In this document: piece by piece, positions 3,759 through 41,924 of the stretch | Numbering within the stretch: the stretch's first letter is position 1 | Layout of the letters: each line of letters starts with the position of its first letter | Assembly (NCBI GenBank): GCA_020718125.1 | Contig: DYDC01000001.1 | Span: 1 to 44,668 of the forward strand | Origin: Methylacidiphilum sp. | GTDB taxonomy: Bacteria; Verrucomicrobiota; Verrucomicrobiia; CAIQCK01 | DNA length: 44,668 nucleotides | Direction: 5' to 3' | Made by a program: the position numbers and the translations under genes | Notes under the pieces: model-generated | The model's input: only the letters and a program-made list of their open reading frames with translations | What the model was told of the DNA's origin: nothing | Databases searched by the model: none

Positions 3759-3782
3759 GATGAAATGATGAATGATCTGAAT

Positions 3783-5129: not shown

Positions 5130-5149
5130 GATCACCTTGGATGTTCGCA

Positions 5150-5221
5150 GTAGCGCGATTCATCGCGCGTGCGGTCGCATGTCGGAAGAACGGCGTAACG
5201 CGCGATGAATCGCGCTCCTAC
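5150..5221. repeat. REPIN-like doublet (GTAG-hairpin ... hairpin-CTAC)
   Basis: GTAGCGCGATTCATCGCGCG at 5150-5169 and CGCGCGATGAATCGCGCTCCTAC at 5199-5221 are inverted copies. Each arm is itself a 7-bp hairpin (GCGCGAT-TC-ATCGCGC). Confidence 0.55.
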
Positions 5222-5311
5222 GAACCAAACATCCCCATTTGCTTTCGCATGGAGCGGGTCAACTTCGCGCGCGACATTCTCGATAAGCCGAAAGACGGAC
5301 CTGCAGCCAGC

Positions 5312-6463: not shown

Positions 6464-6473
6464 AATTCTTTTT

Positions 6474-6523
6474 GGCAAAATCATGGTGGGCAAAATCATG
6501 ATTTTGCCCTGTATGATTTTGCC
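6474..6523. repeat. cluster of four GGCAAAATCAT 11-mers (two direct, two inverted), including a perfect 20-nt palindrome
   Basis: Copies lie at 6474-6484, 6489-6499, 6498-6508 (inverted) and 6513-6523 (inverted). GGCAAAATCATGATTTTGCC at 6489-6508 is a perfect palindrome. A fifth copy sits at 7915-7925. Confidence 0.6.
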
Positions 6524-7875
6524 TAAACCTTCTCCGGCACCACGAACGGCGCGCGGTATTCGCGCGTGAGCATCGCGTTGGCTTCCTTGTCGTTCTTGAA
6601 CGTCATCGTCGCCGGGTCGAACTCCAGGCTGCGGCCGAGGCGATAGGAGATGTTGCCGAGGTGGATGAGCGCGCAGGAATAGAAGCCCTCCTGAATGCTC
6701 TTGTTGAACTCTTCCGGCTTCGGCTCGCGGATGGCGTTGACGAAGACCTCGTAGTGATTGCCCGCGCCCTTGCCGGTCGGGCCGGCTTCACGTTTCTCGC
6801 CCATGAACGTGCGCCATTCGCTGACGCTCTTGGCCATGTAGCCTTTGGAGCCGAAGAACAGGTTGCCGCAGGTGTTGCCGGCGCTGGTGGCCATGTAGCC
6901 GTCGGCGCCGGCCTTTTTCATCCACATGCCGTCTTCACTGTTGCTGACCCAGTGGCGCGCCTCGAATTGGAGAATCTTCTTCTTGTCGCCGCCGCCATCG
7001 GGGTTTGGGAACTCATACATCGCCATCAACACGTTCGGCGTCTGCTGGTCGTCGTTGAACATCACGTGGCCGCCCATCGCGCTGATCTTCGTCGGCAGCT
7101 TCACGCCGAGGCCCCAGCGGGCGATGTCCATCTCATGCACGCCCTGGTTGCCCATGTCGCCGTTGCCGTAGTCCCAGTTCCAATGCCACTCGTAGTGGAA
7201 GCGGTTCTTGTTGAACGGCCGCGCCGGCGCGGGGCCTTGCCAGAGGTCGTAGTGGACGCCCTTCGGCACCGGCTCGTCCTCGAAGTGGCCGATGGTCTTG
7301 CGCCACTTGTAGCAAAGGCCCTTGGCCATATAGACCTCGCCGAGACCGCCGTCCTGGAGGAACTGCGCCATCGTCTGCGAGCACGGGTTGCTGCGCTGCT
7401 CCGCGCCGTCCTGCACCAGCACGCGATATGTTTTCGACGCCTCGACCAGCTTGCGGCCCTCGTAGAAGTTGTGGCAGCACGGCTTCTCGACCGAGACGTG
7501 TTTGCCGGCCTGAATGCCGTAGATCGCGGCGAGCGTGTGCCAGTGGTTCGGCGTCACGACTGAGAAGCCGTCAATCTCCTTGTCCTCGACCATCTTCCGG
7601 ATGTCGGTGTAGGTCTTCGGCGCTGGGCGGTTCTTCTTGGTGAAGTGCTTGGCGATAACCTCCGGGAAGAGGTTCTCGTCCACGTCGCAGAGCGCGGCGA
7701 CCTCGACGTTGGGCAGGGCGTTGTAGGCGGCGATGTGGCTCTGGCCCATGCCGTGGATGCCGACGACGGCGAGCCGGACGCGGTCATTGGCGCCAGCCCA
7801 CGCGCGGTGGGTGCCGATGAGCAACGCGCCGGTGGCGACGCTGCCTTGTTTGAGGAAATTGCGACGGGTCATCAT
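6523..7875 (-). CDS. Gfo/Idh/MocA family oxidoreductase with twin-arginine signal
   Basis: MMTRRNFLKQGSVATGALLIG...AWA is a TAT signal. It is followed by a VGIHGMG Rossmann motif and a typical Gfo/Idh/MocA layout. Confidence 0.85.
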   Translation of the reverse strand: MMTRRNFLKQGSVATGALLIGTHRAWAGANDRVRLAVVGIHGMGQSHIAAYNALPNVEVAALCDVDENLFPEVIAKHFTKKNRPAPKTYTDIRKMVEDKEIDGFSVVTPNHWHTLAAIYGIQAGKHVSVEKPCCHNFYEGRKLVEASKTYRVLVQDGAEQRSNPCSQTMAQFLQDGGLGEVYMAKGLCYKWRKTIGHFEDEPVPKGVHYDLWQGPAPARPFNKNRFHYEWHWNWDYGNGDMGNQGVHEMDIARWGLGVKLPTKISAMGGHVMFNDDQQTPNVLMAMYEFPNPDGGGDKKKILQFEARHWVSNSEDGMWMKKAGADGYMATSAGNTCGNLFFGSKGYMAKSVSEWRTFMGEKREAGPTGKGAGNHYEVFVNAIREPKPEEFNKSIQEGFYSCALIHLGNISYRLGRSLEFDPATMTFKNDKEANAMLTREYRAPFVVPEKV

Positions 7876-15675: not shown

Positions 15676-16539
15676 ATGAGAACGCAAAAAGATTCGCCCG
15701 CGGTGCGCACGATCACGTTGGGCCACAGCCCCGACCCGGATGATGCCTTCATGTTCTACGCGCTGGCCGCCGGCAAGATCGAGACGGGCGATCTGCGCTT
15801 CGAGCACATCCTGCAAGACATACAGACCCTTAACGAGCGCGCCACGCGCGGCGAACTGGACGTGACCGCCATCTCCATCCACGCTTACGCCTCCGTCCTC
15901 GATAAATATGCTCTTTTGCCCAGCGGCGCTTCGATGGGCGACGGCTACGGGCCGATGGTGGTGGCGAAAGGCCGAAGGTCGAAGGACGAAATCCGAAAGA
16001 TGAAGATCGCCGTCCCTGGACGGATGACCAGCGCGTTTCTGGCGCTGCGGCTGTGGCTCGGCGAGGATTTCAACCATGTCGTCGTGCCGTTCGACCAGAT
16101 CTTTGCCACGGTGAAGCGCGGCGATGCCGAAGCCGGCCTCATCATCCACGAAGGCCAGCTCACCTATCAAAAGGAGGGCTTGGACCTCTGTGTGGACCTC
16201 GGCGCATGGTGGAAGGCTGACACGGGCGGCCTGCCGCTCCCGCTCGGCGGCAACGCCATCAAGAAATCCCTCGGCAAGCCGCTGATGAGCCGCATCTCAA
16301 AGCTCCTGACCGAAAGCATCCGCTACGGCCTTGCCCACCGCCAGCCCGCAGTCGCTCACGCGATGGCCTACGCCCGCGACATGGACGTGCCGCTGGCCGA
16401 CAAGTTCGTCCGGATGTATGTGAACGACTGGACGCTCGACTACGGCGACAAGGGCAGGGAAGCCATCCGCCTTTTCCTCCGCCGCGGCTGCGAAGCCGGC
16501 ATCATCCCCCAGGCGGTGGATCTGGAGTTTGTGGAGTAA
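15676..16539 (+). CDS. menaquinone (futalosine pathway) biosynthesis protein, MqnD/VitK2-biosynthesis family
   Basis: ITLGHSPDPDDAFMFYAL...DVTAISIHAY...GDGYGPMVVA...AVPGRMTSAFLALRL matches the PF02621-type MqnA/MqnD family, closest to the MqnD pattern. The internal ATG at 15676 was chosen as the start. Confidence 0.7.
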   Translation: MRTQKDSPAVRTITLGHSPDPDDAFMFYALAAGKIETGDLRFEHILQDIQTLNERATRGELDVTAISIHAYASVLDKYALLPSGASMGDGYGPMVVAKGRRSKDEIRKMKIAVPGRMTSAFLALRLWLGEDFNHVVVPFDQIFATVKRGDAEAGLIIHEGQLTYQKEGLDLCVDLGAWWKADTGGLPLPLGGNAIKKSLGKPLMSRISKLLTESIRYGLAHRQPAVAHAMAYARDMDVPLADKFVRMYVNDWTLDYGDKGREAIRLFLRRGCEAGIIPQAVDLEFVE

Positions 16540-17340: not shown

Positions 17341-18864
17341 ATGCCCGAATACTTCATCGGAATAGACAGCGGCACCCAATCCACCAAGGCCATCGTCGTG
17401 GACGCGCGCACCGGCCGCGTTGCCGGCAGCGGCGCGAAAGCGCACGGCCTCATCCCGAAACTGCCGCCGGGCCACAAGGAGCAGCACCCGAAGGTGTGGA
17501 TTGACGCGGTCATCGCCAGCGTCCGCGCCGCGCTCAAGGCTGCGAAAGTGAAGGCCGCCGACGTGCGCGGCATCGGCGTCAGCGGCCAACAGCATGGGTT
17601 CGCGCCTCTGGATGCCGCGGGCAACGTCATCCGTCCGGCAAAACTCTGGTGCGACACGTCCACCGCGACGCAATGCGACGAGATCATCGGCAAGCTGGGC
17701 GGCCTCTCGCGCGTCATCGAGCTCATCGGCAACGGCGTGCCGGCGGGTTTCACTGCGTCGAAGATTCTCTGGCTCAAACAAAACGAGCCGCAGAACTACG
17801 CGAGGCTCGCCACCGTCCTGTTGCCGCACGACTACATCAACTTCTGGCTGACGGGCAACAAGACGATGGAGTTCGGCGACGCCAGCGGCACGGCGCTGAT
17901 GGATGTGCGTTCGCGCCAATGGTGCGACGCGGTCATCGCTGCGATTGATCCCGATCTCAAAGCGAAGCTGCCGGCCATCCAGCCGAGCGACCAGCCCGCG
18001 GGCAAGTTGCGTGCTGAAGCCGCCAGGTCGCTTGGTGTGGGCGGCAACGTGATCGTCAGCGCGGGTGGTGGCGACAACATGATGGGTGCCATCGGCACCG
18101 GCAATACGCGGCCAGGCATCGTTACAGCGAGCTTCGGCACCAGCGGGACGATCTACGCGTGCAGCGACAAGCCGGTGATTGATCCCGAGGCGGAGATTGC
18201 CGCGTTCTGCGATTCCACGGGGCAATGGCTGCCGTTGCTCTGCACGATGAACGTCACCGTTGCCACCGAGATGGTCCGCAAAGACTTCGGCTGGACGTTC
18301 GCGAAGATGGACGCCGAAGTGAAGAAGACGCCTGTCGGCGCGGGCGGCCTCGTGCTGCTCCCCTACTTCGAGGGCGAGCGCACACCGAACGTGCCCGATG
18401 GCACAGGCGTCTTCTTCGGGGTGAACAACCGCACGCTCGCGGCGGGGCCGTTCGCGCGCGCGGCGATGGAGGGCGCCACGCTCGGCATGAACTACGGCCT
18501 GAACCGCCTGCGCGCGCTCGGCATCGCGCCGACGCAAATTCGCGCTACGGGCGGCGGCTCGCAATCGCCGGTTTGGCGGCAGATCATGGCCGACGTGTTC
18601 AACGCCGAGGTCGTTTGCGCGCAGACGGCGGAGGGCGCGGCCTACGGCGGCGCGTTGCAGGCAATGTGGTGCTGCGCCCGCCAGCGGGGCAGCAAGGTCG
18701 AGATTTGGGAAATCACCGATGAGTTCGTCAAACTCGACCGGAAGAGCATCGCCAAACCGAAGCCGGCCAACGTGGAGAAGTATCGCGCGCTCCAGACGCT
18801 GCAAGACCAGCTCAGCCGCGATCTGCGCGGGGCGTTTGCGAAGCACCGGGCGTTGGTGTCGTAA
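17341..18864 (+). CDS. xylB: FGGY-family carbohydrate kinase, xylulokinase-like
   Basis: IGIDSGTQSTKAIVVD ... GVSGQQHGFAPLD ... KLWCDTST ... GGGSQSPVWRQIMADVF are FGGY/xylulokinase signatures. Confidence 0.8.
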   Translation: MPEYFIGIDSGTQSTKAIVVDARTGRVAGSGAKAHGLIPKLPPGHKEQHPKVWIDAVIASVRAALKAAKVKAADVRGIGVSGQQHGFAPLDAAGNVIRPAKLWCDTSTATQCDEIIGKLGGLSRVIELIGNGVPAGFTASKILWLKQNEPQNYARLATVLLPHDYINFWLTGNKTMEFGDASGTALMDVRSRQWCDAVIAAIDPDLKAKLPAIQPSDQPAGKLRAEAARSLGVGGNVIVSAGGGDNMMGAIGTGNTRPGIVTASFGTSGTIYACSDKPVIDPEAEIAAFCDSTGQWLPLLCTMNVTVATEMVRKDFGWTFAKMDAEVKKTPVGAGGLVLLPYFEGERTPNVPDGTGVFFGVNNRTLAAGPFARAAMEGATLGMNYGLNRLRALGIAPTQIRATGGGSQSPVWRQIMADVFNAEVVCAQTAEGAAYGGALQAMWCCARQRGSKVEIWEITDEFVKLDRKSIAKPKPANVEKYRALQTLQDQLSRDLRGAFAKHRALVS

Positions 18865-18957
18865 TACGTAATGCGTAATACGTAAAACGGAAACGGAACC
18901 GTCGCACCCAGCCTTACGCATCACGCATTACGCATTACGGTTCACGTTTCCAGTTTC
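18862..18957. repeat. heptanucleotide-repeat tract pair (TAATGCG-type then GAAACGG-type, followed by their complements)
   Basis: TAATACG TAATGCG TAATACG TAAAACG GAAACG GAACCG, then a 12-nt spacer, then TTACGCA TCACGCA TTACGCA TTACGGT TCACGTT TCCAGTT. The tract fills the whole xylB-amidohydrolase intergenic gap. Confidence 0.7.
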
Positions 18958-20791: not shown

Positions 20792-22014
20792 TGGCAATGG
20801 AACTCGACGCGTTTGCGACTGCGGCGTTGGAGGAACTGCGCGCGGCTGGATTGCTTCGGTCGCTCCGCACGGTTGGCAATCCGCAAGGCCCGCTCATTAC
20901 GGTGGACGGCCGGGAGCTGCTGAACTTCTCCTCCAACGATTACCTCGGCCTCGCGAACGATCCGTTGCTGCGCGAGGCGGCGGTGCGCGCTGTGGAGCGA
21001 TACGGCGTCGGCGCGGGCGCGTCGCGGCTGGTCTGCGGCAACATGGCGCCGTATGGCGAACTGGAGGATCGCTTGCCGGCTTTCAAGGGGAAGGAGGCGG
21101 CGGTCGTTTTCGGTTCCGGCTATGCCGCCAATGTCGGCACGATTTGCGCGCTGGTTGGTAAAGGCGACACCGTCATCCTCGACAAGCTCAACCACGCCAG
21201 CATCGTTGATGGCGCCCGGCAGAGCGGGGCGACCGTCCGCGTCTATCCGCACCGCGACATGGACAAGCTAGAGAAGTTGCTGAAACAGAGTGGGCCGTGC
21301 GTCCCGCACGGCCAATCATCGACGATCAGCCGCGCGGGACGCGCGGCCCACCCTAGTCGCACACTCGTAGTCACAGAAACCGTCTTCTCCATGGACGGCG
21401 ACCACGCGCCGCTGCGCGAGATCGTCGAGTTGAAAGACCGCTACGGCGCGTGGCTGATGATTGATGAGGCTCACGCAACGGGCCTCTACGGGTCGCGCCG
21501 GCGGGGACTGGCCGAGGAACTGGGTGTGGAGGACCAGATTGACGTGACCCTCGGCACGTTGAGCAAGGCGCTCGGCTGCGTCGGTGGTTTCGTGTGCGGC
21601 TCGCGCGCGCTCGTGGACTTGCTCATCAACCGGGCGCGCAGCCTCATTTACTCGACGGCCCTGCCGCCGGCCATCGTCGCGGCAGCGAGCGCGGCGGTGC
21701 AGTTTGTGATGAGCGACGCCGGCCAGGCACGGCGGGAGTTGTTGTTGCAGCGGGTGAAGGAATTGCATCAAGGTGTGGTCAACCTTGGATACCGCAGCGT
21801 TCCGACCGGAGCAATCATGCCGATGGTTGTCGGTGACGAAGTCAAAGCGATGGCCCTGTCGCGGAGGCTGCTGGACGCCGGCGTCTTTGTCCCGGCGATC
21901 CGTTATCCGACCGTCGCCCGTGGCGCGGCACGCTTGCGGCTGACTGTGACGGCCGCGCATACCGCTGAACGGGTTCAGTTGCTGATAGGAAAGCTGTCGG
22001 GCGCGGGCCAGTGA
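20788..22014 (+). CDS. bioF: 8-amino-7-oxononanoate synthase
   Basis: NFSSNDYLGL, GSGYAANVG, FSMDGD and TLSKALG (PLP lysine) motifs. It carries a 68-nt palindromic insert. Confidence 0.9.
   Translation: MMAMELDAFATAALEELRAAGLLRSLRTVGNPQGPLITVDGRELLNFSSNDYLGLANDPLLREAAVRAVERYGVGAGASRLVCGNMAPYGELEDRLPAFKGKEAAVVFGSGYAANVGTICALVGKGDTVILDKLNHASIVDGARQSGATVRVYPHRDMDKLEKLLKQSGPCVPHGQSSTISRAGRAAHPSRTLVVTETVFSMDGDHAPLREIVELKDRYGAWLMIDEAHATGLYGSRRRGLAEELGVEDQIDVTLGTLSKALGCVGGFVCGSRALVDLLINRARSLIYSTALPPAIVAAASAAVQFVMSDAGQARRELLLQRVKELHQGVVNLGYRSVPTGAIMPMVVGDEVKAMALSRRLLDAGVFVPAIRYPTVARGAARLRLTVTAAHTAERVQLLIGKLSGAGQ
21287..21354 (+). repeat. REPIN-like hairpin doublet (family B) inside bioF, translated in-frame
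   Basis: AGAGTGGGCCGTGCG-TCC-CGCACGGCC, 15-nt spacer, GCCGCGCG-GGA-CGCGCGGCCCACCCT. It encodes QSGPCVPHGQSSTISRAGRAAHPS between conserved BioF blocks. Confidence 0.75.
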
Positions 22015-22081: not shown

Positions 22082-23413
22082 ATGGATTCGCTCGCTGACA
22101 AGGACCATCGCCACCTCTGGCATCCGTTCACGCAGATGCGTGACTGGATGGCGGAGGAGCCTGTCATTATCGCGCGGGGGCAGGGTGCGCGACTGTGGGA
22201 CACGAAGGGTCGCGAGTATCTCGACGCCAACGCCTCGATCTGGACGAATATCCACGGCCACAACCATCCGCGCATCAACGCCGCCATCCGCGCCCAACTG
22301 GAGAAGGTCGCGCACAGTTCGTTCCTCGGCCTGTCGAACGTGCCGGCCATCGAACTGGCGGAGAAGTTGGTCAGCATCGCGCCTGTAGCGGCGGTCTCTG
22401 ACCGCCGTCGGTTGCCAGAAGACGAACAGCCGGCGGTCAGAGACCGCCGCTACAGTCCGCTCACACGCGTTTTCTACAGCGACGACGGCTCCACGGCGGT
22501 CGAGGTGGCAATCAAGATGGCGCTGCATTACTGGGTCCATCGCGGCCAGCCGCAGCGACGGCGGTTCGTGGCATTCAGCGGCGCCTATCACGGCGATACG
22601 GTCGGCGCGGTGAGCCTCGGCGGGATTGATCTGTTTCACGCGGCCTACAAGCCGCTGCTGTTTGAAGTGGAGCATGTGGCGGACGCGGCGGCGCTGAGAT
22701 CAGTTTTGGAGAGGCATGGCAAAGAAGTGGCTGCGGTGGCGATCGAACCTCTGATTCAGGGCGCGGCGGGGATGAAGGTGTGGCCGCGCGGTTTGTTGGC
22801 AGAGACGCGGCGGCTTTGCGATGAGCACGGGGCGTTGCTGGTCGCCGACGAAGTGATGACGGGCTTTGGCCGGACAGGAACGATGTTCGCGTGCGAGCAG
22901 GAGAGCGTGACGCCGGATTTTCTGTGTCTGGCGAAAGGGTTGACGGGCGGCTACATGCCGCTGGCGGCGACACTGACGACTGACGCAGTGTTCGAAGCGT
23001 TTCTCGGCAGCTACGAAGACCAGAAGACGTTCTTTCACGGCCACAGTTATACAGGCAACCAGCTCGGCTGCGCGGCGGCGCTGGCAAGCTTGGCGGTCTT
23101 CGAGGAAGAGCAGACGCTGGAGCAGTTGCAGCCGAAGATTGGGTTGCTGCGGAACGATCTACAGGAGTTCTGCGAGCTGAAGGCGGTGATGGAGGTCCGT
23201 CAGTGTGGCTTCATCGGCGCAGTGGAGCTTGGCTCGTATCCGTGGAAGGCAAAGGCGGGCATCCGAGTGTGCCAGCGTGCGCGCGAGCTGGGCGCGCTGA
23301 CGCGGCCCATCGGCAACGTCATCGTCATCATGCCGCCACTGTGTGTGACGGAGGATGAGTTGCGGAAGATATGCGAGGCGCTGCGACGGGCGATTCAGGA
23401 GGAGTTGAGATGA
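22082..23413 (+). CDS. bioA: adenosylmethionine-8-amino-7-oxononanoate aminotransferase
   Basis: HLWHPFTQM, RVFYSDDGSTAVEVAIKMA, ADEVMTGFGRTG and MPPL motifs. It carries a 73-nt palindromic insert. Confidence 0.9.
   Translation: MDSLADKDHRHLWHPFTQMRDWMAEEPVIIARGQGARLWDTKGREYLDANASIWTNIHGHNHPRINAAIRAQLEKVAHSSFLGLSNVPAIELAEKLVSIAPVAAVSDRRRLPEDEQPAVRDRRYSPLTRVFYSDDGSTAVEVAIKMALHYWVHRGQPQRRRFVAFSGAYHGDTVGAVSLGGIDLFHAAYKPLLFEVEHVADAAALRSVLERHGKEVAAVAIEPLIQGAAGMKVWPRGLLAETRRLCDEHGALLVADEVMTGFGRTGTMFACEQESVTPDFLCLAKGLTGGYMPLAATLTTDAVFEAFLGSYEDQKTFFHGHSYTGNQLGCAAALASLAVFEEEQTLEQLQPKIGLLRNDLQEFCELKAVMEVRQCGFIGAVELGSYPWKAKAGIRVCQRARELGALTRPIGNVIVIMPPLCVTEDELRKICEALRRAIQEELR
22383..22455 (+). repeat. 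REPIN-like hairpin doublet (family C) inside bioA, translated in-frame
   Basis: CTGTAG-CGGCGGTC-TCT-GACCGCCG, 23-nt spacer, CGGCGGTC-AGA-GACCGCCG-CTACAG. The arms are perfect inverted copies. It encodes VAAVSDRRRLPEDEQPAVRDRRYS just before the conserved RVFYSDDGS block. Confidence 0.8.
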
Positions 23414-24075
23414 AGGCCGAAGGTCGAAGGTCGAAGGCCGAAGGAAGGCCGAAATCCGAAAACCGAAGCGCGGCGTGTGTGTTTGTGACTGGAACAGATA
23501 CGGGGGTGGGCAAGACATTTGTGACGGCGGCGCTTGTGCGAGCATTGCGGAAAGCGGGCGTCCATGCGGGCGCAGTGAAACCATTTGCCACAGGGAACCG
23601 GGACGATGCGCGGGTGTTGCGGGCGGCAATGGACGGCGAGTTGACGCTGGCGGAGATCAATCCAGTGTTCTTCCGACGGCCGTTGGCGCCGATGGTGGCG
23701 GCGCGGTTGGAGGGGAAACGTGTGCCGCTGCGAGTAAGACTGCCGGCCAAGCGGTTCGATTTGCTGCTGGTCGAGGGCGTCGGGGGCTGGCTGGCGCCTC
23801 TGACGGATCGTGTGATGGTGGCGGATTGGGTGGCGCGGCAGGGCTGGCCGATCGTCATTGTTGCGCGGGCGGGCTTGGGAACGATCAATCACACGCTGCT
23901 GACGGTGGAAAGCGCGCGGCGGCGAGGTGTGAAGATTGTAGCCGTGATTCTGAATGACGTGGACAAGGCTGGCACGGCAGCGGCGCGGAGGAACGCGGTC
24001 GTCTTGCGGCGGTTGACGCGGCTGCCGGTGTTCGTGTCGGCAAGTGGATTGGCGGCTGCGCTTCTCGGACGATGA
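23410..24075 (+). CDS. bioD: dethiobiotin synthase
   Basis: FVTGTDTGVGKT P-loop and the typical BioD length. The ATG at 23410 overlaps the bioA stop. The first ~20 codons are encoded by a heptad tract, so the true start could be the GTG near 23477. Confidence 0.8.
   Translation: MKAEGRRSKAEGRPKSENRSAACVFVTGTDTGVGKTFVTAALVRALRKAGVHAGAVKPFATGNRDDARVLRAAMDGELTLAEINPVFFRRPLAPMVAARLEGKRVPLRVRLPAKRFDLLLVEGVGGWLAPLTDRVMVADWVARQGWPIVIVARAGLGTINHTLLTVESARRRGVKIVAVILNDVDKAGTAAARRNAVVLRRLTRLPVFVSASGLAAALLGR
23412..23471. repeat. direct heptanucleotide tract (GAAGGYC family)
   Basis: GAAGGCC GAAGGTC GAAGGTC GAAGGCC GAAGGAAGGCC GAAATCC GAAAACC GAAGCGC at the bioA/bioD junction. Confidence 0.65.
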
Positions 24076-28861: not shown

Positions 28862-28951
28862 TGGCGGAGGGGGCGAGATTCGAACTCGCGAGGGCTTTTA
28901 CACCCCACACGCTTTCCAGGCGTGCTCCTTCAACCACTCGGACACCCCTCC
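28862..28951 (-). tRNA. tRNA-Ser (anticodon GGA)
   Basis: The reverse complement folds as acceptor GGAGGGG/CCCCTCC, anticodon stem CACGC/GCGTG with loop CTGGAAA, a long variable arm, T-arm GCGAG-TTCGAAT-CTCGC, and an encoded CCA. Confidence 0.9.
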
Positions 28952-29084: not shown

Positions 29085-30197
29085 ATGCCCCCAGCCAAAG
29101 CGGCCGACAAAACCGAAAAAACAGACAAAGCCGAGAAGATCGAGAAACCGGCGGGAACCGACGCGGCGCCCGCCAAGACCCCCGCGCAGGTCAAGCAGCT
29201 CGAAGCCGCCATCGCCCACATCGCCAAGACCTACGGCGAGGGCAGCATCATGCGCCTTGGCGACGAGCGCGCCCGCGTGAAGATCGGCGTCATCTCGACG
29301 GGTTCGCTGGCCATTGACATGGCGCTCGGCATCGGCGGCGTGCCGCGCGGGCGCATCGTGGAGATTTACGGCCCGGAAATGTCCGGCAAGACCACGCTCG
29401 TGCTCCAGATCATGGCGCAGGCGCAGAAAAACGGCGGCTTGGCGGCGTTCATTGACGCCGAGCACGCGATGGCCCCGAACTACGCCAAGAAGCTCGGCGT
29501 CAACCTCGACGATTTGCTGGTGAGCCAGCCTGATAGTGGTGAAGAAGCGCTTCAGATCGTCGAGACGCTGGTTCGTTCCAACGCGCTTGACGTTATCGCG
29601 ATTGACTCGGTCGCCGCGCTCGTTCCGCGGGCCGAACTCGAAGGCCAGATGGGCGACGCCATCGTCGGCGTGCAGGCGCGTCTCATGAGCCAGGCGATGC
29701 GCAAACTGACCTCGATTGTGGCGAGGGCCAACACCTGCGTCATCTTCACCAACCAGCTCCGCGAAAAAATCGGCGTCATGTTCGGCAGCCCGGAGACGAC
29801 GCCGGGCGGCAAGGCGCTGAAGTTCTACGCCAGCGTGCGCATTGACATCCGCCGCCAGCAGCAGATTAAAGACCCCGAAGGCCGCGCCATCGGCAACCAT
29901 TGCAAGGTGAAGGTCGTGAAGAACAAGTGCGCCCCGCCGTTCACCGAGTGCGAATTCGACGTGATGTATAACGAGGGCATCTCGAAGGAAGGCAGCATCC
30001 TCGACGTGGCGACCAACTGCGGCGTCGTCGAGAAGAAAGGCTCCTGGCTCCAGTTCGAGGGCGAGATGATCGGCCAGGGCCGCGAAGCCGCGAAGGACTT
30101 CCTCCGCCAGAACCCCGCCGTCGGTGAGAAGATCGTCGCGGCGGTGAAGGCCAAGGCGGCAGGCCCGGCGGCTGCCGCCGAAGTGAAGAGTGAATAG
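29085..30197 (+). CDS. recA: recombinase RecA (with K/E/A-rich N-terminal extension)
   Basis: [17 protein letters not shown] Walker A, FIDAEHA and [20 protein letters not shown] motifs. Confidence 0.95.
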
Positions 30198-30269
30198 TTC
30201 AGAGTGAAGAGTTCAGAAAGTCAGTCACCGTTAACTCTTCACTCTTCACTCTTCACTTTTAACTTTCTG
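30180..30269. repeat. heptanucleotide-repeat tract pair (GTGAAGA-type and complement TCTTCAC-type)
   Basis: AGAGTGAAGAGTT (30201-30213) pairs perfectly with AACTCTTCACTCT (30233-30245). CAGAAAG (30214-30220) pairs with CTTTCTG (30263-30269). The tract begins inside the last recA codons. Confidence 0.7.
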
Positions 30270-30274
30270 CCGTC

Positions 30275-33200
30275 ATGACCAGTTCCGAAATACGCCAGTT
30301 GTTCCTCGACTACTTCAAGCGCCAGGGGCACACCATCGTGCCGTCGTCGTCGCTGCTGCCCGACGCGCCGAACCTGCTGTTCACCAACGCCGGCATGAAC
30401 CAGTTCGTGCCGATCTTCCTCGGCCAGCAGCCGTGCCCCTACAAGCCCCAGCGCGCCGCCGACACGCAGAAGTGCATCCGCGCGGGCGGCAAGCACAACG
30501 ACCTCGAAGACGTCGGCCTCGACACCTACCACCACACGTTCTTCGAGATGCTCGGCAACTGGAGCTTCGGCGACTATTTCAAAAAGGAAGCCATCGCGTG
30601 GGCGTGGGAACTCGTCACATCGAAGGACTGGTGGGGCTTCCCGAAGGAGCGCATCTACGCCACGGTCTATAAGCCCGGCCCCGGCGATCCGAGCGAGTTC
30701 GACCAGGAAGCCTACAACCACTGGGCGAGCATCTTCACCGCCGCCGGCCTCGACCCGAAGCAGCACATCGTCTTCGGCAACAAGAAGGACAACTTCTGGA
30801 TGATGGGCGACACCGGCCCGTGCGGCCCGTGTTCGGAGCTGCACGTGGACCTCACGCCCAAGGGTGACACGCACGGCGCGCTGGTCAACAAAGGCAGCGC
30901 GCAGTGCATCGAGATCTGGAACCTCGTGTTCATGGAGTTCAACGCGAACCCGGACGGCACGTTTTCGCCGCTGCCGGCCAAGAATGTGGACACCGGCGCG
31001 GGCTTCGAGCGCGTCACCTCGATCATCCAGTGCACGAAGAACTTCACCGACTTCGGCGGCATCATCTCCAACTACGAGACTGACGTCTTCCGGCCCATCT
31101 TCGACGTGCTGGAGAAGCTCAGCGGCAAACGCTACGGCTCCACGCTGCCGAAGGCGGGCGAATTACCGGCTGCCGAGCAGGAGAAAATCGACATCGCTTT
31201 CCGTGTCATCGCCGACCACATCCGTTGCCTGGGCTTCGGCATCGCTGACGGCATCCCGCCGAGCAACGAAGGCCGCGGCTACGTCCTGCGCCGCATCCTG
31301 CGCCGCGCCGTCCGCTACGGCCGCTCACTCGGCTTCCACGAGCCGTTCTTCTACAAGCTCGTCGCGGTGCTCGCCCGGACGATGGGCGGCGTGTTCCCGG
31401 AAGCGCGCCAGCGGCAGGCGAGCATCGAGAAGGCCCTGCGCGGCGAGGAGGAGAGTTTCAACCGGACCTTGGATCGCGGCATTGAATTGTTCAACGAGGA
31501 AGCGTTGCGATTGACGGGGAGCGCACGCGTCCCGCGTGCGACTTCCGGCGTCTCGCCGGAAGCTGCGGTGGGCGCACGCTACTCCAAGCGTCGTTTGCCG
31601 CACTTTGAACGACCGTGGGCGAAATACATCGTGACGTTCTCCACCGTGGAGCGCCGGCAACTATCGCCGGCGGCCCGCGGTATCGTCTTGAACAGTCTGT
31701 TGTTTGTGCAGCAGCAAGGCCGCTACCAACTCTACGCCGCGTGTGTGATGCCCGACCACGTCCATTTGCTCTTCGAACCGCAAATCAAGACAGAAGACGC
31801 CGAGGGCAAGCCAATGTTTTGGTCGCTCACAGAACTCCTGCATTCCATCAAATCGTTCACGGCACACGAGATCAACAAGACAGAGGCCAAAAGCGGAGCC
31901 GTATGGGAAAAGGAGTCGTTTGACCGAATGATCCGGTCGGATGCGGACTGTGAAGAGAAGTTCAACTACATCTGCCAAAACCCTTGGGGGCCGGGTGGGG
32001 TTGCGCAGACGGAACCGTATCAGTGGTTGTGGACGCCTGAGGTTGCGCAACCGCAGACTCCTCGGCGGGACGCCGAGGAGGGCACGCGGGACGCGTGCGC
32101 TCCCCGGAACCTAACGGGCGACTTCGCTTTCAAACTCTATGACACCTACGGCTTCCCGCTCGACCTCACGGAACTGATGGCTCGCGAGCAGGGACTGAAA
32201 GTGGACGTGCCAGGCTTCGAAAAGCGGATGGAAGAACAACGGCAGCGGGCGCGTGAGGACTACGAGAAGAAGAAGTCGGTCATCGCGGCTGTGGGCGAGG
32301 GGCTGAAGGTCGAGCCGACGAAGTTCCTCGGCTACGACAACCTCGAAGCCGAGGCGGTCGTCGAGGCCGTCGCGCCGGGCGCGGAGGCGGGCGAGTTCGA
32401 GGTCGTCCTCGACAAGACGCCATTCTATGCCGAGATGGGCGGCCAGGTCGGCGACACGGGCCTGGTCCACGCGCCGGGACACGACTGGACCGAACTGGGC
32501 AAGCTACAGGTGCTCGACACGCAGCGTCAGGGCGAGGTCCATGTTCACCGCTCCAAGCTCTCCGACGGCCGCGCGCCGGTGGTGGGGGAGGCGGTGCGCG
32601 CAGCAGTGGACGCGGCGCGGCGGGCGAACATCCAGCGGCACCACACGGTGACGCACCTGTTCCACTGGGCGTTGCACGAGGTCGTCAGCAAGGACGCGCG
32701 GCAGCGCGGCTCGCATGTCGCGCCGGACCGGATGCGGTTCGATTTCAATCACCCGGAGCGGCTGACCGAGCGGCAGATCGCCGACATCGAGCGGCTGGTT
32801 AACGAGCGGATCAAGGAGAACGCGCCGGTCTATTGGACCGAAGCGCCTTACACCGAGATCAAGGGCAACGCGGCCGTGATGCAGTTCTTCGGCGAGAAAT
32901 ACGGCGACATCGTCCGCGTGGTGCAGATCGGCGGCCACGCGGGCAAGTTCGACGGCTATTCGGCGGAGCTTTGTGGCGGCACGCACACGCGGAACACGGG
33001 CGACATTCAGTTCTTCAAGATCGCGAAAGAGTCTGCCATCGCGGCGGGCACGCGCCGCGTCGAGGCGGTCGTGGGCCGGTTCGCGCTGGAGTTCGTGGAG
33101 AAGATGAAGGTTCAGCAGCGGGCCGAAGCCGCCAAAGCGCAGGCTCGCGGGCAGGACAAGGAACTCGCGAAGCAGCGGCAGGCGGATGCGCAGCGTCAGG

Positions 33201-33565
33201 CCGCGGGTCTTGCCGGTCAACTACTGGCGAAGGCGCAGCAGGTCGGCGCCGTGAAGTGCGTCGTTGCCAACGTCGGGGAAACGACGCCTGATGCGCTACG
33301 GACGATTGTTGACGGCATCAAGCCGAAGTTGCCGAGCGGCGTGGTTGTGCTCGGTGGCACGGGCGGCGGCAAGGTGTCGCTGGTTTGCTTCATCACACCC
33401 GACCTCGTGAAAGCGGGCAAGAACGCCGGCGAGATTGTTGGCGCGCTGGCGAAGACTTGCGGCGGTGGCGGCGGCGGCAGGCCGGACATGGCGCAGGCCG
33501 GCGGCAAAGACCCGTCGAAGCTCGACGAGGCGCTGAGATCTGTCACGGGCTTGATTGGCGGCTGA
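30275..33565 (+). CDS. alaS: alanine--tRNA ligase carrying an in-frame ~197-codon insertion
   Basis: FTNAGMNQF, KHNDLEDVG, WSFGDYFK, LYDTYGFPLDLT, the HHTVTHLL-type editing motif (RHHTVTHLFHWAL) and a C-terminal GGGG DHHA1-like end. It is 1096 aa versus the roughly 870-900 aa I recall for typical bacterial AlaRS. Confidence 0.9.
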   Translation: MTSSEIRQLFLDYFKRQGHTIVPSSSLLPDAPNLLFTNAGMNQFVPIFLGQQPCPYKPQRAADTQKCIRAGGKHNDLEDVGLDTYHHTFFEMLGNWSFGDYFKKEAIAWAWELVTSKDWWGFPKERIYATVYKPGPGDPSEFDQEAYNHWASIFTAAGLDPKQHIVFGNKKDNFWMMGDTGPCGPCSELHVDLTPKGDTHGALVNKGSAQCIEIWNLVFMEFNANPDGTFSPLPAKNVDTGAGFERVTSIIQCTKNFTDFGGIISNYETDVFRPIFDVLEKLSGKRYGSTLPKAGELPAAEQEKIDIAFRVIADHIRCLGFGIADGIPPSNEGRGYVLRRILRRAVRYGRSLGFHEPFFYKLVAVLARTMGGVFPEARQRQASIEKALRGEEESFNRTLDRGIELFNEEALRLTGSARVPRATSGVSPEAAVGARYSKRRLPHFERPWAKYIVTFSTVERRQLSPAARGIVLNSLLFVQQQGRYQLYAACVMPDHVHLLFEPQIKTEDAEGKPMFWSLTELLHSIKSFTAHEINKTEAKSGAVWEKESFDRMIRSDADCEEKFNYICQNPWGPGGVAQTEPYQWLWTPEVAQPQTPRRDAEEGTRDACAPRNLTGDFAFKLYDTYGFPLDLTELMAREQGLKVDVPGFEKRMEEQRQRAREDYEKKKSVIAAVGEGLKVEPTKFLGYDNLEAEAVVEAVAPGAEAGEFEVVLDKTPFYAEMGGQVGDTGLVHAPGHDWTELGKLQVLDTQRQGEVHVHRSKLSDGRAPVVGEAVRAAVDAARRANIQRHHTVTHLFHWALHEVVSKDARQRGSHVAPDRMRFDFNHPERLTERQIADIERLVNERIKENAPVYWTEAPYTEIKGNAAVMQFFGEKYGDIVRVVQIGGHAGKFDGYSAELCGGTHTRNTGDIQFFKIAKESAIAAGTRRVEAVVGRFALEFVEKMKVQQRAEAAKAQARGQDKELAKQRQADAQRQAAGLAGQLLAKAQQVGAVKCVVANVGETTPDALRTIVDGIKPKLPSGVVVLGGTGGGKVSLVCFITPDLVKAGKNAGEIVGALAKTCGGGGGGRPDMAQAGGKDPSKLDEALRSVTGLIGG
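31516..32105 (+). mobile_element. REP-associated tyrosine transposase (RAYT / IS200-like Y1 HUH) cassette with 24-nt perfect terminal inverted repeats, embedded in alaS
   Basis: GGGGAGCGCACGCGTCCCGCGTGC (31516-31539) is the exact reverse complement of 32082-32105. The interior encodes RRLPHFERPWAKYIVTF..., MPDHVHLLF (HUH) and FNYICQNPW (catalytic Tyr region). There is no stop codon in the alaS frame. Confidence 0.75.
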
Positions 33566-33870: not shown

Positions 33871-33904
33871 TCGCCGGGCGGGGCCGATATTTTCGGCCGT
33901 GTTG

Positions 33905-34130
33905 TAAGTCTTCAGGGCAGGGTGAACATGCCGCCTGTAGTGACGGTGGCGGCAAGTGATTCCCGACCGGCGGTAAACCCCGCGACCCCTCGCGAGCAGA
34001 GGGCTGATCCGGTGCAACTCCGGAGGCGACGGTAAAGTCCGGACGAAAGAAGAATTCGTGGCTCGCCTGCAAGGCAGGCGGCGTGTCACTTTCGACCCTG
34101 AAGGCTGTGCGGCTTCAGGGTTGTTATTTT
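33905..34130 (+). promoter_or_regulatory. FMN riboswitch (RFN element) with expression platform, upstream of ribBA
   Basis: CTTCAGGGCAGGGTGAA...ATTCCCGACCGGCGGTAAACCCCGCGA...GATCCGGTGCAACTCCGGAGGCGACGGTAAAGTCCGGACGAAAGAAGA matches the conserved RFN core blocks in order. Confidence 0.85.
34095..34130 (+). terminator. riboswitch terminator/sequestor hairpin
   Basis: ACCCTGAAG-(9-nt loop)-CTTCAGGGT followed by TGTTATTTTA, immediately before the ribBA ATG. Confidence 0.5.
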
Positions 34131-37162: not shown

Positions 37163-38063
37163 GGGCCTCTCCAAGACCCACGACAAGCTGGTCGGCGAGA
37201 TCAAGCGCATCGTCACCCGCGCGCCCAAGCTCGACCCGGAATCATTGGATGAACTTGAAGCCGCGCTGATCGGTTGCGACATCGGCGTCGAGACCGCGTT
37301 GCGGATCGTGGAGGAAGTCCGCAATGCGAGCGCTGAGGTGGGTCGGGCGTCCCGCACGGCCTCTGGCGAGGTGGATGTGGTGGCAATCGCCAAGCGCATC
37401 GCGTCCGAGGCGCTCAACAGCGGCCCGCTCGCACTGCGTCAGGCCGCGCGGCCGCCGACGGTCGTGTTGCTGGCAGGCGTCAACGGCACCGGCAAGACAA
37501 CCTCGACGGCCAAACTCGCGCATCAGCTCAAACAGGACGGTCGGAGCGTGCTGCTCGCCGCGTGCGACACGTTCCGAGCGGCGGCCATCGAGCAGCTTAA
37601 GATTTGGGGCCAGCGCACCGGCTGCGATGTGATTGCCGGCCAATACGGCGCCGACTCGGCCGCCATCGCCTTTGACGCGCTCGATGCGGCCATCAGCCGC
37701 AAGTGTGACTACCTGTTGATTGACACCGCCGGGTGCCTGCACACGAAGAAGAATCTCATGGATGAGATGGCCAAGATGCGGCGCGTGATCCGAAAACGAG
37801 TGCCCGACGCGCCGCACGAGACGCTGCTGGCGCTGGATGCGACGACCGGCGTCAACGGTCTGAATCAAGCGCGGGAGTTTCATCAGGCGCTGGGCGTGAC
37901 CGGCCTCATTGTCACGAAGCTCGACGGCACCGCCAAAGGCGGTATCGTGGTGGCCATCAACCGCGAGTTGAAGATTCCCGTGAAGTTCATCGGCGTCGGC
38001 GAGCAGGCGGACGACCTCCAGCCCTTCGACGCCAAGGCGTTTGCCGATGCCCTCTTCAGTTGA
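37134..38063 (+). CDS. ftsY: signal recognition particle receptor FtsY
   Basis: GVNGTGKTTSTAKLA, DTAGCLHTK and TKLDGTAKGG SRP-GTPase motifs. Confidence 0.9.
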   Translation: MLGLLQKFREGLSKTHDKLVGEIKRIVTRAPKLDPESLDELEAALIGCDIGVETALRIVEEVRNASAEVGRASRTASGEVDVVAIAKRIASEALNSGPLALRQAARPPTVVLLAGVNGTGKTTSTAKLAHQLKQDGRSVLLAACDTFRAAAIEQLKIWGQRTGCDVIAGQYGADSAAIAFDALDAAISRKCDYLLIDTAGCLHTKKNLMDEMAKMRRVIRKRVPDAPHETLLALDATTGVNGLNQAREFHQALGVTGLIVTKLDGTAKGGIVVAINRELKIPVKFIGVGEQADDLQPFDAKAFADALFS

Positions 38064-39213
38064 GTTCGACGAGCAGATGATGCGGCGCGCGCTGGCGCTG
38101 GCCCGGCGCGCGTTGGGGGAGACTTCGCCCAACCCGATGGTGGGGGCCATCGTCGCCAAGAACCGCCGCCTTATCGCCGAGGGCTACCATTACCGCGCAG
38201 GCACGCCACACGCCGAGATTCATGCGCTGAAAGCGGCCGGAACCCGCGCCAGGGGCGCAGACCTCTACGTGACTCTGGAGCCGTGCAGCACACACGGCCG
38301 GACACCGCCCTGCACGGACGCCATCATCGAGGCTGGCATCCGCCGCGTCGTGGTCGCGACGAAGGATCCAAACCCGCGTCACGCAGGCCGCGGCCTTGAC
38401 TTATTGAAAGAGGCTGGCATCAAGGTCGAGATGGGCCTGCTGGCTGAGGAAGCGGCCCGATTCAACGAATGTTTCAACAAATGGATCCGCGCAGGCACGC
38501 CGTTTGTCATCGCGAAGGCCGCCATGTCGCTCGACGGCAAGATTGCGACCGCCGGCGGCAAGTCGAAGTGGATCACCGGCGAGCCGGCGCGCGCGCTGGT
38601 GCGGGAGTTGCGGCGCGGTGTGGACGCGATCATGGTTGGGTGGCGAACCGTGGCGTTGGACGACCCGCGGTTGACGGTGCGGCTGCGCGGCGTCAAGCAT
38701 CAGCCGTGGCGGGTGGTGGTGGACGCGCGCGGTGAGTCGGGCTTGAAGGCGAACGTTTACACCGACGAGCACAAGGCGCGGACGATGGTGGTCACGAGCA
38801 AGTTGGCGCCTGCGGCTTGGCGCAAGCAACTAGCCGACCGCGGAGTTGCAATCATTGAGTGCGCTACTGTAGCGGCGGTCTCTGACCGCCGCAGCACCCG
38901 GAGTGAACGGCCGGCGGTCGGAGACCGCCGCTACAGTGATCGGATTGACCTGCGTGACGCGCTGCGGCGGCTCGGCGAGCGCGAGATCACGAGCGTGCTT
39001 GCCGAGGGTGGCGGGCGGTTATTGGGGGCGTTGATGGATCAGCGGCTGGTGGACAAGCTGGTGTTCTTCTACGCGCCGAAGATCATCGGCGGACGCGAAG
39101 CGCCGACGGCCATCGAGGGCGAGGGCATCAAGGCGCTGGCCGATGCCGTCACGTTGCGAAACGTCGAGTGGCGCAGGCTGGGGGAGGACCTCGTGGTGAC
39201 GGCTTACTGCTGA
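38041..39213 (+). CDS. ribD: bifunctional riboflavin deaminase/reductase RibD
   Basis: PNPMVGAIV, HAEIHAL and TLEPCSTHGRTPPC deaminase motifs, plus a C-terminal reductase region (EGGG). It carries a 70-nt palindromic insert. Confidence 0.9.
   Translation: MPMPSSVEFDEQMMRRALALARRALGETSPNPMVGAIVAKNRRLIAEGYHYRAGTPHAEIHALKAAGTRARGADLYVTLEPCSTHGRTPPCTDAIIEAGIRRVVVATKDPNPRHAGRGLDLLKEAGIKVEMGLLAEEAARFNECFNKWIRAGTPFVIAKAAMSLDGKIATAGGKSKWITGEPARALVRELRRGVDAIMVGWRTVALDDPRLTVRLRGVKHQPWRVVVDARGESGLKANVYTDEHKARTMVVTSKLAPAAWRKQLADRGVAIIECATVAAVSDRRSTRSERPAVGDRRYSDRIDLRDALRRLGEREITSVLAEGGGRLLGALMDQRLVDKLVFFYAPKIIGGREAPTAIEGEGIKALADAVTLRNVEWRRLGEDLVVTAYC
38867..38936 (+). repeat. REPIN-like hairpin doublet (family C) inside ribD, translated in-frame
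   Basis: CTGTAGCGGCGGTCTCTGACCGCCG ... CGGCGGTCGGAGACCGCCGCTACAG. The left arm is identical to the bioA copy. It encodes VAAVSDRRSTRSERPAVGDRRYS. Confidence 0.8.
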
Positions 39214-40103
39214 TCAGCAAAAGTTGCCAGCCGGCGAAACGCTTTTTGTTTCTCGCTCAGTTCGAGCTTGGTCGTGTTCAGCGTTTCCCGCAGGAACTCG
39301 ATGCTCTGGTCATAAACTTCGCGGTTTACCGGATACGGATGACCGTCTTTGCCGCCGTGGGCGAAGCTGAAACGGGCCGGGTCGCGCCAACTGGGGGCGG
39401 TGCCGTAAAGTAGTTCGCTGATGAGAGCGAGGGCGCGCAAAGTTTTCGGCCCGACGCCGGGGAGTGACAGGAGTTGCTCGAAGGACTGTGGCGCGGTTTC
39501 GTAGGTTTGAAGCAGGATGCGATGAAGGCGGTCGGGGTTGATGTCCGCGATGCGTATCGGATGGCGGCGAGGCTGGGTTAGTTCGAAACCGGGCAGCGCG
39601 GGCGTAGAGTGGGCCGTGCGTCTCGCACGGCTTGTCGCTGATGATTGGCCGTGCGGGACGCACGGCCCACTCTGTTCAAGTTCCTTCATCAGCGCGTCAG
39701 GCTGCTCGCGGGTCACAGTCACGCTTGCTTGACGAGTCGCATCACTCTCCGCCGCCACAAGGTTCAGCGTCGCTTGTCCGCGCTGGTCACAGCAGACGGC
39801 GGCGTGAGGCTCGTTGACAAAGTTCTGCACGTTGTCGCCGAGCCAAGGGTAGCGGCGGGCGTATTTGCCGGTCGCGTTCATGCCTTGCTGGACTACGGCC
39901 CAATAGCCGCTCGACGTGAACAGAAAACAGTGGTGATAGAGGTCGTAGCCGTCCTGCACGGCAGCAGAGTCCACCTTTGCAGCGAGTTTACTCGCGTAAA
40001 CCAATTCCATCGGACTGCGGCTGAGCGCGTAACAATGCGCCTCGATCTCCGACGGTGTCTTGCGCGAGGTGGCGCCTTTGCCGCCGGCGACGCCGGTTTT
40101 CAC
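39204..40103 (-). pseudogene. DUF763-family gene lacking its N-terminal ~110 codons
   Basis: Family-like sequence starts at GVAGGKGATSRKTPSEIE... and includes VDSAAVQDGYDLYHH, VVQQGMN and EPHAAVCCD. The upstream part of the ORF-track reading frame is antisense to ribE and unrelated. The only possible start is the GTG at 40103. Confidence 0.5.
39606..39673 (-). repeat. REPIN-like hairpin doublet (family B) inside the DUF763 remnant, in-frame
   Basis: On the minus strand the first 27 nt (AGAGTGGGCCGTGCGTCCCGCACGGCC) are identical to the bioF copy. It encodes QSGPCVPHGQSSATSRARRTAHST. Confidence 0.75.
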
Positions 40104-41527: not shown

Positions 41528-41533
41528 TCTTTT

Positions 41534-41905
41534 CGAAGGGGCGGATAGTCGCTGGCTTCGCTTCGGCGGGGCTGGAGGAAAGTCCGGACTCCATAGGGCA
41601 GGACGCCCCGTGAAAGCGGGGGAGCGCCGCTTCAAAGCGGCGTGACGGACAGTGCCACAGAGAACATACCGCCCCGATGTCGGCAACGGCGCCGGGGTAA
41701 GGGTGAAAAGGTGCGGTAAGAGCGCACCGGGCGCGCGAGCAATCGCCGCCGCATGGAAAACCCCGTCCGGAGCAAGACCGAATAGGGGACTGAGTGGCCC
41801 GCTCGTCGGTCCCGGGTATTGGTCGCATAGACAAATGACTGTCTGAATCCTGTGAGCCTTTGCGGGCCACGCAGGATAAACAAAATCCGGCTTACGGCCC
41901 CTTCG
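41534..41905 (+). ncRNA. rnpB: RNase P RNA, bacterial type A
   Basis: P1 CGAAGGGGC/GCCCCTTCG. Conserved GAGGAAAGTCCGGACTCC, ACAGAGAACATACCGCC, GGTAAGGGTGAAAAGGTGCGGTAAGAGCGCACC and ACAAAATCCGGCTTAC blocks are present in the canonical order. Confidence 0.9.
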
Positions 41906-41924
41906 AATTATTGAAAATGGAGTG

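Follow-up and report, generated by a model that had tools for sequence, protein, structure and literature searches.

In-frame doublets of a GTAG-tagged REP family within the bioA and ribD genes of a Verrucomicrobiota genome

The window analyzed here is a 44,668-nucleotide (44.7-kb) stretch of DNA from a metagenome-assembled genome (MAG) labelled Methylacidiphilum sp. (Verrucomicrobiota; contig DYDC01000001.1 of assembly GCA_020718125.1), in which bioA, a gene for biotin, and ribD, a gene for riboflavin, each contain, in frame, two inverted copies of a GTAG-tagged repetitive extragenic palindromic (REP) sequence that we term family C. Comparison with orthologues confirms that both are true insertions, and the sequence evidence makes it probable that they are non-autonomous REP-class mobile elements that have survived in frame in permissive loops of the two enzymes, most likely after mobilization by a REP-associated tyrosine transposase (RAYT). 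Events of this kind have already been described (Di Nocera et al. 2013); family C and its host genes are new. The genes and their elements are listed below; ribD is taken to start at the ATG at 38047, the mechanically called open reading frame (ORF) beginning at the TTG at 38041.

22082..23413, plus strand: bioA (adenosylmethionine-8-amino-7-oxononanoate transaminase), 443 aa, Pfam Aminotran_3 (E = 1.8e-97)
22383..22455, no strand assigned: family C REP doublet in bioA, with left arm 22383-22407, spacer 22408-22430 and right arm 22431-22455
38047..39213, plus strand: ribD (bifunctional deaminase/reductase), 388 aa, Pfam RibD_C (8e-54) and dCMP_cyt_deam_1
38867..38936, no strand assigned: family C REP doublet in ribD, with left arm 38867-38891, spacer 38892-38911 and right arm 38912-38936

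The bioA left arm reads CT-GTAG-CGGCGGTC-TCT-GACCGCCG and the right arm is its exact reverse complement. The full 25-nt arm, CTGTAGCGGCGGTCTCTGACCGCCG, is found without mismatches at 22383-22407 (+), 22431-22455 (-) and 38867-38891 (+), and with a single mismatch in the loop (GGA for AGA) at 38912-38936 (-), which bears out the twin reported in ribD by an earlier note on this DNA, made from the sequence alone. These four matches in the window compare with 0.00 expected from 100 dinucleotide shuffles. All four arms read CT-GTAG-CGGCGGTC..., with GTAG placed directly 5' of the stem, and a hairpin scan resolves every one of them into a short GC-rich palindrome with a perfect 8-bp stem (8-9 bp over the four arms) and a 3-nt loop. 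The REP unit therefore measures 23 nt (GTAG tag, 8-bp GC stem and 3-nt loop), with a CT dinucleotide ahead of GTAG on both arms. In the repeat scan the paired arms emerge as inverted repeats of 31 nt (94% complementary) in bioA and of 26 nt (96%) in ribD, the latter reaching from 38866 to 38937. When an 89-nt bioA region is folded as RNA, the long hairpin is the minimum-free-energy structure (-63 kcal/mol, z = -9.8), and the same region folded as DNA yields -39.6 kcal/mol (z = -10.4). Between the arms lie spacers of 23 nt in bioA (TCGGTTGCCAGAAGACGAACAGC) and 20 nt in ribD (CAGCACCCGGAGTGAACGGC), neither of them palindromic, which have only a GAACRGC beside the right arm in common; the description of the bioA element as a 73-nt perfect palindrome is hence accurate for its 25-nt arms and not for its spacer. 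The units are 73 nt and 70 nt long, neither a multiple of 3, and their translations read, as previously quoted, ...IAPVAAVSDRRRLPEDEQPAVRDRRYSPLTRVFYSDDGSTAVE... within the 443-aa Aminotran_3 ORF (22082-23413) and ...ECATVAAVSDRRSTRSERPAVGDRRYSDRIDL... within the RibD ORF.

Orthologues of BioA and RibD were collected by protein searches and aligned (alignments A1 and A2, respectively). The BioA insert occupies residues 102-125 and makes the gene 23 aa longer than its 420-aa empty orthologues (P0013-P0025, up to 84% identical), which read IAP-xG-LxRVFY uninterrupted; three residues (PLT) stand between the insert and the conserved block RVFYSDDG, which it had been thought to precede directly. 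In RibD the insert falls in the reductase domain and lengthens the gene by 21 aa relative to its empty orthologues of 367 aa (P0122-P0124, 85-87% identical), which read ECAVDG-DRIDL at this point. At the codon level the net gain over the empty alleles is 69 nt (23 aa) in bioA and 63 nt (21 aa) in ribD. Alignment to the Bacillus subtilis BioA structure (PDB 3DOD) breaks at query 101/126, corresponding to chain 101/103, and alignment to B. subtilis RibG (PDB 2B3Z) at query 271/297, corresponding to chain 276/279, the solved structures having 1-2 residues where the inserts fall. In the AlphaFold2 (AF2) model of RibD (mean predicted local distance difference test score, pLDDT, 80.7; predicted TM score, pTM, 0.80) residues 280-295 score below 50 and form a coil between confident elements; in that of BioA (mean pLDDT 68.7, pTM 0.50) residues 103-122 likewise score below 50, as coil between helix 87-99 and strand 129-133, this model being mediocre, built on 34 sequences and used as weak support only. 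Given that the closest orthologues and the solved structures lack the elements, both are confirmed as insertions, and the homologous residues in orthologues that had been named as refuting this are absent from the closest BioA and RibD sequences. That the segments are instead ancestral enzyme loops or an assembly artefact is scarcely credible: only the derivation of the sequence from a MAG speaks for it, whereas empty orthologues are found both inside and outside the clade, the solved structures have next to nothing at these positions, a protein identical to BioA is encoded on 5 contigs from NCBI and ENA, and the related filled alleles stem from independent JGI, ENA and Logan assemblies. Inserts found in nature at the same BioA site range from none to about 60 residues (A1), which argues that this loop is likely to be permissive for insertion.

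Apart from these two sites, distant relatives show more spots of variable-length insertion, in the RibD deaminase domain (A2 columns 115-141, near window residue 66-70, e.g. GVRSQESGVRSQ...) and in BioA (A1 columns 223-229 and 454-460), and these suggest that other repeat-derived inserts may be present there.

Both elements begin on codon position 2, with (22383-22082) mod 3 = (38867-38041) mod 3 = 1, and neither introduces a stop, in agreement with the earlier note. The left arm with loop TCT (also with TAT or TGT) is interrupted in phase 1 by TAG and in phase 2 by TGA, and only the phase read as VAAVxDRR is open, whereas the right arm with loop TCT has no stop in any of the 3 phases. Since stops close the left arm in the two remaining phases, the phase shared by the bioA and ribD copies reflects survivorship, is no property of the insertion mechanism and therefore carries no information. 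In eight further host genes (listed below) the left arm is always read VAAVxDRR, and the right arm is read AVxDRRYS, GGHRPPLQ or RRSQTAAT, as set by the length of the spacer.

Those genes were found by scanning 185,579 species genomes for exact matches to the family C core GTAGCGGCGGTCNNNGACCGCCG. No fewer than 120 loci with at least 157 arms emerged, several loci per MAG; the refuting outcome named in the earlier note, only two copies devoid of hairpin conservation, did not occur. Among the matches listed, the loci belong to Verrucomicrobiota (many orders), Terriglobia/Acidobacteriota (including contigs of 0.45-2.2 Mb), Pirellulales (Planctomycetota), Kiritimatiellia and Lentisphaerae, and some arms stand singly, some form homodimers whose spacers vary, and others pair with a related CGGCGCTC-stem REP into heterodimers, a mixture that, judged from sequence, is the behavior of a REP and unlike that of a MITE (a miniature transposable element with inverted repeats). 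A tblastn search with BioA and RibD against the at least 120 loci found no orthologues, only a weak RibD-like match in L078. Of the at least 157 arms listed, 27 lie within ORFs reaching 60 aa or more beyond the arm in each direction, and in-frame copies were verified with Pfam in the following genes:

L009: LeuRS
L022: MFS transporter
L026: XseA
L033: MetH, between two domains
L056: membrane TPR protein
L072: aminotransferase
L098: polyketide synthase
L102: Cu-ATPase

A preference for vitamin-biosynthesis genes had been suggested on the strength of bioA and ribD; in-frame copies in eight genes as varied as these indicate that family C has no such link.

The loci also point to a transposase. 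In an Opitutia MAG (L039) a 153-aa ORF (3269-3727) with HUH and Tyr motifs lies between two inverted family C arms, one at 3235-3257 (+) and the other, 487 nt away, at 3744-3766 (-); the ORF scores 23.3 bits against Pfam Y1_Tnp (cut-off 23) and 88.1 bits against NCBIfam REP_Tyr_transpos (cut-off 80). It has 2899 homologues in Verrucomicrobiota, Chthoniobacterales and Terriglobia, some of which are named RayT or REP-associated tyrosine transposase in their sources, and L075 presents a partial case of arms flanking a RAYT. These data support the identification of the L039 ORF as a putative RAYT cognate to family C, and the earlier reading of the elements as GTAG-hairpin REPs of the RAYT type gains accordingly from the wide occurrence of the same arms. 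In a Pirellulales MAG (L077:4972-5063) three direct-tandem family C arms at a spacing of about 35 nt are joined by a degenerate inverted arm; this is a cluster resembling a bacterial interspersed mosaic element (BIME) and contains no doublet.

REPINs of Pseudomonas fluorescens SBW25, as described by Bertels and Rainey in 2011, are reportedly composed of two inverted REPs that form one long hairpin, are thought to be mobilized in trans by a single-copy RAYT and to persist for long periods, and are said to be nearly all extragenic with conserved spacing. The family C doublets resemble them in being two inverted REPs able to form one hairpin, and differ in that their spacers vary between copies and that the local copies are all intragenic; the REPIN label given to them earlier thus fits their shape, while copying of the doublet as a unit finds no support. 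The REPs of Stenotrophomonas maltophilia group 3 are 23 nt long, with GTAG, an 8-bp perfect palindrome and a 3-nt loop, and their RAYT cuts at CT (Corneloup et al. 2021, NAR 49:6982, PMC8266576). The architecture of family C is identical to that of this group-3 REPtron, down to the CT right before GTAG on both arms; the stem and loop sequences differ, and family C and the L039 RAYT are known from sequence alone.

The closest precedent is the survey of GTAG and CGTC REPs by Di Nocera, De Gregorio and Rocco (2013, BMC Genomics 14:522, PMC3733652), which reports intragenic REPs in several species. Among these are GTAG REP dimers coding for 20-30 residues, commonest in Opitutus terrae; the hosts of intragenic REPs include tRNA synthetases and repair genes, and the insertions are regarded as probably neutral, as they occupy linkers or loops that are flexible (PMC3733652). 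Family C shares with these dimers the GTAG-tagged inverted stem-loops, the location wholly within ORFs for known proteins, the length of 20-30 residues, the occurrence in Verrucomicrobia and the link to RAYTs. It is set apart by its stem sequence, which is unlike that of the O. terrae families, of which GTAG-17 to GTAG-20 encode VGPALAAG, GTGVPPV and similar peptides (PMC3733652). The list of intragenic REPs in that paper contains neither a VAAVxDRR nor a DRRYS peptide, nor bioA or ribD, and the paper brings up several families sharing one loop for Xanthomonas recB only. The same survey also covers the Rickettsia palindromic elements (RPEs; Ogata et al. 2000, as summarized in PMC3733652), in-frame palindromic repeats that add a peptide segment to still-functional genes; the intragenic repeats of R. 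conorii are either counted among the CGTC repeats (RPE-4, RPE-6), which are without a dedicated transposase, or longer (RPE-1). The analogy to RPEs drawn previously extends to the in-frame palindromic behavior and no further, given that family C bears a GTAG tag and has no sequence relation to the RPEs as presented in that source, and the intragenic GTAG dimers stand closer.

In light of these comparisons, we propose the following scenario. Two inverted 23-nt REPs, each after a CT, constitute the architecture that a group-3 RAYT/TnpAREP (an HUH Y1 enzyme) would bind in folded, single-stranded form and cut at CT. One such doublet would have landed in the BioA loop between a helix and the next β-strand, and a loop in the reductase domain of RibD would have received another. 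As both genes are needed, the survivors would be those insertions that kept the frame, were free of stops and fell in a tolerant loop, and the opening of the left arm in one phase only would have left both copies with the same phase. The element would be transcribed, and its translation would give a disordered segment in which Arg, Asp, Ala and Val abound, a peptide dictated by the DNA palindrome and presumably not itself under selection.

Several observations weigh against this proposal. The spacers of the two doublets are unlike in both length and sequence, so that the conserved spacing of REPINs is not seen, albeit in a weak test with two copies. The 44.7-kb window contains no RAYT flanked by family C arms, its sole RAYT (within alaS, see below) being flanked by a different REP, and the local copy number is low, at 2 doublets (4 arms), both intragenic; stretches of 3-21 kb from seven related contigs likewise contain no family C copies besides those in bioA and ribD. 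The empty alleles have 7-9 nt that are replaced in the filled ones, which is no simple insertion, and comparison of filled and empty alleles reveals no target-site duplication at either the bioA or the ribD insertion point. On the side of translation, we infer read-through of the inserts, as some 24 residues in keeping with the earlier note, from the long-term conservation of frame. A further point concerns the bioA copies of the window and of the related contigs L122 and L127, which look orthologous in sequence, with spacers of 23, 17 and 23 nt that are related by in-frame indels and share CAGAAGA. Between the window and L122 or L127, 45/46 or 43/46 arm bases and 32/32 stem bases are identical at an identity of 60-62% at fourfold-degenerate sites; the differences are restricted to the GTAG tag (one arm of the L127 copy has GTGG) and the loops, and the loops of paired arms remain complementary or in G-T wobble (TCT/AGA, TCT/GGA, TAT/ATA). 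Simple neutral hitch-hiking does not seem to explain such conservation, which points to possible constraint or re-copying at the level of the nucleic acid.

The mode of insertion bears on whether the doublets might rather be MITEs that derive from a DDE insertion sequence of the classical type and rely on the 25-31-bp terminal inverted repeats, independently of any RAYT. The length of these repeats (25-31 nt) and of the unit (70-73 nt) would suit a MITE. This origin is nevertheless very unlikely, in that the missing target-site duplication and the replaced 7-9 nt are at odds with it, arms often stand alone or form heterodimers with another REP, each arm is a GTAG-tagged hairpin in its own right, and the arms in L039 flank a Y1 (HUH) RAYT and no DDE transposase. 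When bioA, ribD and the eight other host genes are taken together, no shared target motif or target-site duplication is found at their insertion points.

The question of age is addressed by the relatives, in which the presence/absence comparison proposed in the earlier note uncovers filled, empty and other-family states. A family C element is present at the same BioA site in P0002 and P0004-P0008 (A1), and doublets of other inverted repeats occupy this site in P0003 and P0012 (L126) and in P0009-P0011 (L125). In a neighbor-joining tree of BioA without the insert the three states are interleaved, e.g. P0008 (family C) is sister to P0009 (other family); repeated gain is inseparable in this tree from loss or recombination, and we make no claim as to the number of events. 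In RibD, decayed copies are seen in P0125 and P0126 (~70% identical) and remnants decayed further in P0128 and P0130. One could thus view the elements as frozen relics, namely old doublets of REP origin that are no longer mobile, retained in bioA and ribD since their imprecise deletion would be lethal and lost from intergenic DNA. In accord with this, the family C copies of the window and of the 3-21 kb stretches of the seven related contigs are intragenic without exception, the bioA insert that the window shares with L122 and L127 has homologous-looking spacers with in-frame indels (23, 17, 23 nt) that bespeak an old event, and the four ribD copies just mentioned are visibly decaying. We give this explanation some chance, although not an even one: a neutral relic should have decayed, as the ribD copy of L129 did, instead of retaining 32/32 stem bases at 60-62% fourfold-site identity; the ribD copy of the window is intact where its closest relatives (85-87% identical) are empty, suggesting recent gain or re-copying; and the filled, empty and other-family states are interleaved in the tree.

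The same conservation could alternatively reflect a selected function, with an mRNA hairpin (a perfect duplex of ~25 bp, conceivably an RNase III or translation-pausing signal) or the peptide loop regulating the levels or activity of the biotin and riboflavin enzymes. The great stability of the structure (-63 kcal/mol, z = -9.8), stems kept far above neutral expectation and the complementary or wobble-paired loop bases (TCT/AGA, TAT/ATA, TCT/GGA) are compatible with such a role. We consider it improbable, however, as the same element is found in unrelated genes and in intergenic DNA across phyla, close relatives lack the insert or have a different palindrome at the same site, and the right arm is read in three frames across genes, leaving the peptide unconserved. 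Moreover, no Rfam family matches at its gathering score, and the only hits below threshold are miRNA-precursor models, a generic resemblance between hairpins. Mobile REP doublets that would be essentially neutral as peptides hence remain our preferred interpretation of the bioA and ribD features.

The most unusual item of the window is a RAYT-like gene residing in frame within alaS:

30275-33565: alaS (alanyl-tRNA synthetase, AlaRS, ORF of 1096 aa), with an in-frame 594-nt cassette at 31514-32107, the insert of 198 aa spanning about aa 413-612

The cassette consists of a GGAG-tagged REP at 31518-31540 (+), a complete RAYT-like ORF and an inverted REP at 32081-32103 (-); the ORF scores 30.8 bits against Pfam Y1_Tnp and 79.4 bits against NCBIfam REP_Tyr_transpos, for which the cut-off is 80. 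A HMMER scan of 1.84 billion representatives gave 71 matches at E <= 1e-30, most of the best ones inside long proteins. Thirty long proteins with a RAYT of this type were checked with Pfam, and they comprise 16 AlaRS, 1 with the AlaRS/ThrRS SAD domain only, 4 RecG, 1 PriA and 3 class-I aminoacyl-tRNA synthetases, along with a PFL-like enzyme, a shikimate kinase, a PurH and a DNA methylase (1 each) and 1 protein without any other Pfam domain. We found no account of a RAYT embedded in such host proteins in the literature searched; unexpectedly long proteins were set aside as fusions or annotation errors by Quentin et al. (2018). A PDB sequence search with the cassette returned only a spurious sulfotransferase match. 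Among relatives, the AlaRS of L129 (L129:423-3506, 1027 aa) has an 86-aa insert exactly at the cassette site of the window as well as ~40 extra residues starting near residue 130, and that of a third relative is 910 aa long. The 86-aa insert was considered as a remnant of the cassette and rejected, as it has neither similarity to it nor palindromic arms.

We tentatively raise the further possibility that, beyond accidental survivorship, intragenic life is a niche in which REPs and RAYTs persist in Verrucomicrobiota. We are led to it because loops in BioA, BioF, RibD and AlaRS are reused by different palindromic families in sister lineages, because REP stems are identical where fourfold sites are ~60% identical, and because an essential gene can even harbor the transposase gene in frame, as in alaS and, among its relatives, in other hosts. 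Were this the case, host-RAYT fusion proteins would be made, an intein-like lifestyle without splicing, and such intragenic REPtrons would have their non-autonomous counterparts in the doublets of bioA and ribD.

The value of the bioA and ribD finding itself is mostly practical. In annotation, it accounts for odd inserts of 21-25 residues rich in Arg, Asp and Ala (VAAVxDRR...DRRYS, GGHRPPLQ, RRSQTAAT) in predicted proteins; such inserts recur in soil and freshwater Verrucomicrobiota, Acidobacteriota and Planctomycetota and should be masked in alignments, phylogenies and structure predictions. It also points protein engineers to loops of BioA and RibD that accept insertions in nature. The turnover at insertion hot spots, the still unexplained conservation of the arms and the in-frame RAYT nearby add somewhat to its interest, and the wider pattern of loops hit by several families, conserved stems and a RAYT in AlaRS could matter more, in that it could make the persistence of REP/RAYT systems, as parasites or in domesticated form, testable from uncultured phyla.

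The window contains further REPs, and structured RNAs of ordinary kinds:

21287-21354: copy of a GTGG-tagged REP family (GTGG-GCCGTGCG-TCC-CGCACGGCC) in bioF, in frame, encoding QSGPCVPHGQSS...
39606-39673, minus strand: copy of the GTGG-tagged family in a DUF763 gene, in frame, encoding QSGPCVPHGQSS...
37338-37361: singlet of the GTGG-tagged family in ftsY, in frame
5143-5225: fourth REP family and third GTAG-tagged doublet (GTAG-CGCGAT-TCA-TCGCGCG), with arms of 28 nt, 93% complementary
33904-34058: flavin mononucleotide (FMN) riboswitch upstream of the ribBA-ribH genes
41533-41910: bacterial RNase P RNA (class A)
28865-28951: tRNA

The BioF insert of the window is absent in L122, L127 and L129 and shared with L126, and L123 has a different palindromic insert at that place. 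In L124 (L124:1740-2961, GCA_964460705.1), where the bioA site is empty, bioF is annotated in two pieces, as genes of 219 and 189 aa, a split that may be due to a frame-breaking element or to an assembly error. The intergenic doublet at 5143-5225 has as its neighbors a CYTH-domain gene and a URO-D-like gene. The repeat scan additionally detects AT-richer inverted repeats or palindromes unrelated to the GC-rich REPs at 4975-5009/5103-5137, 6470-6527, 18860-18946 and 30181-30265 (e.g. AAGTGAAGAGTGAA..., CGTAATACGTAATGCG...). Finally, near-identical runs of a short CGAAGG-like unit (GAAGGCCGAAGGTCGAAGG...) are present at 15964-16000 and 23409-23445, one of them at the bioA/bioD junction.

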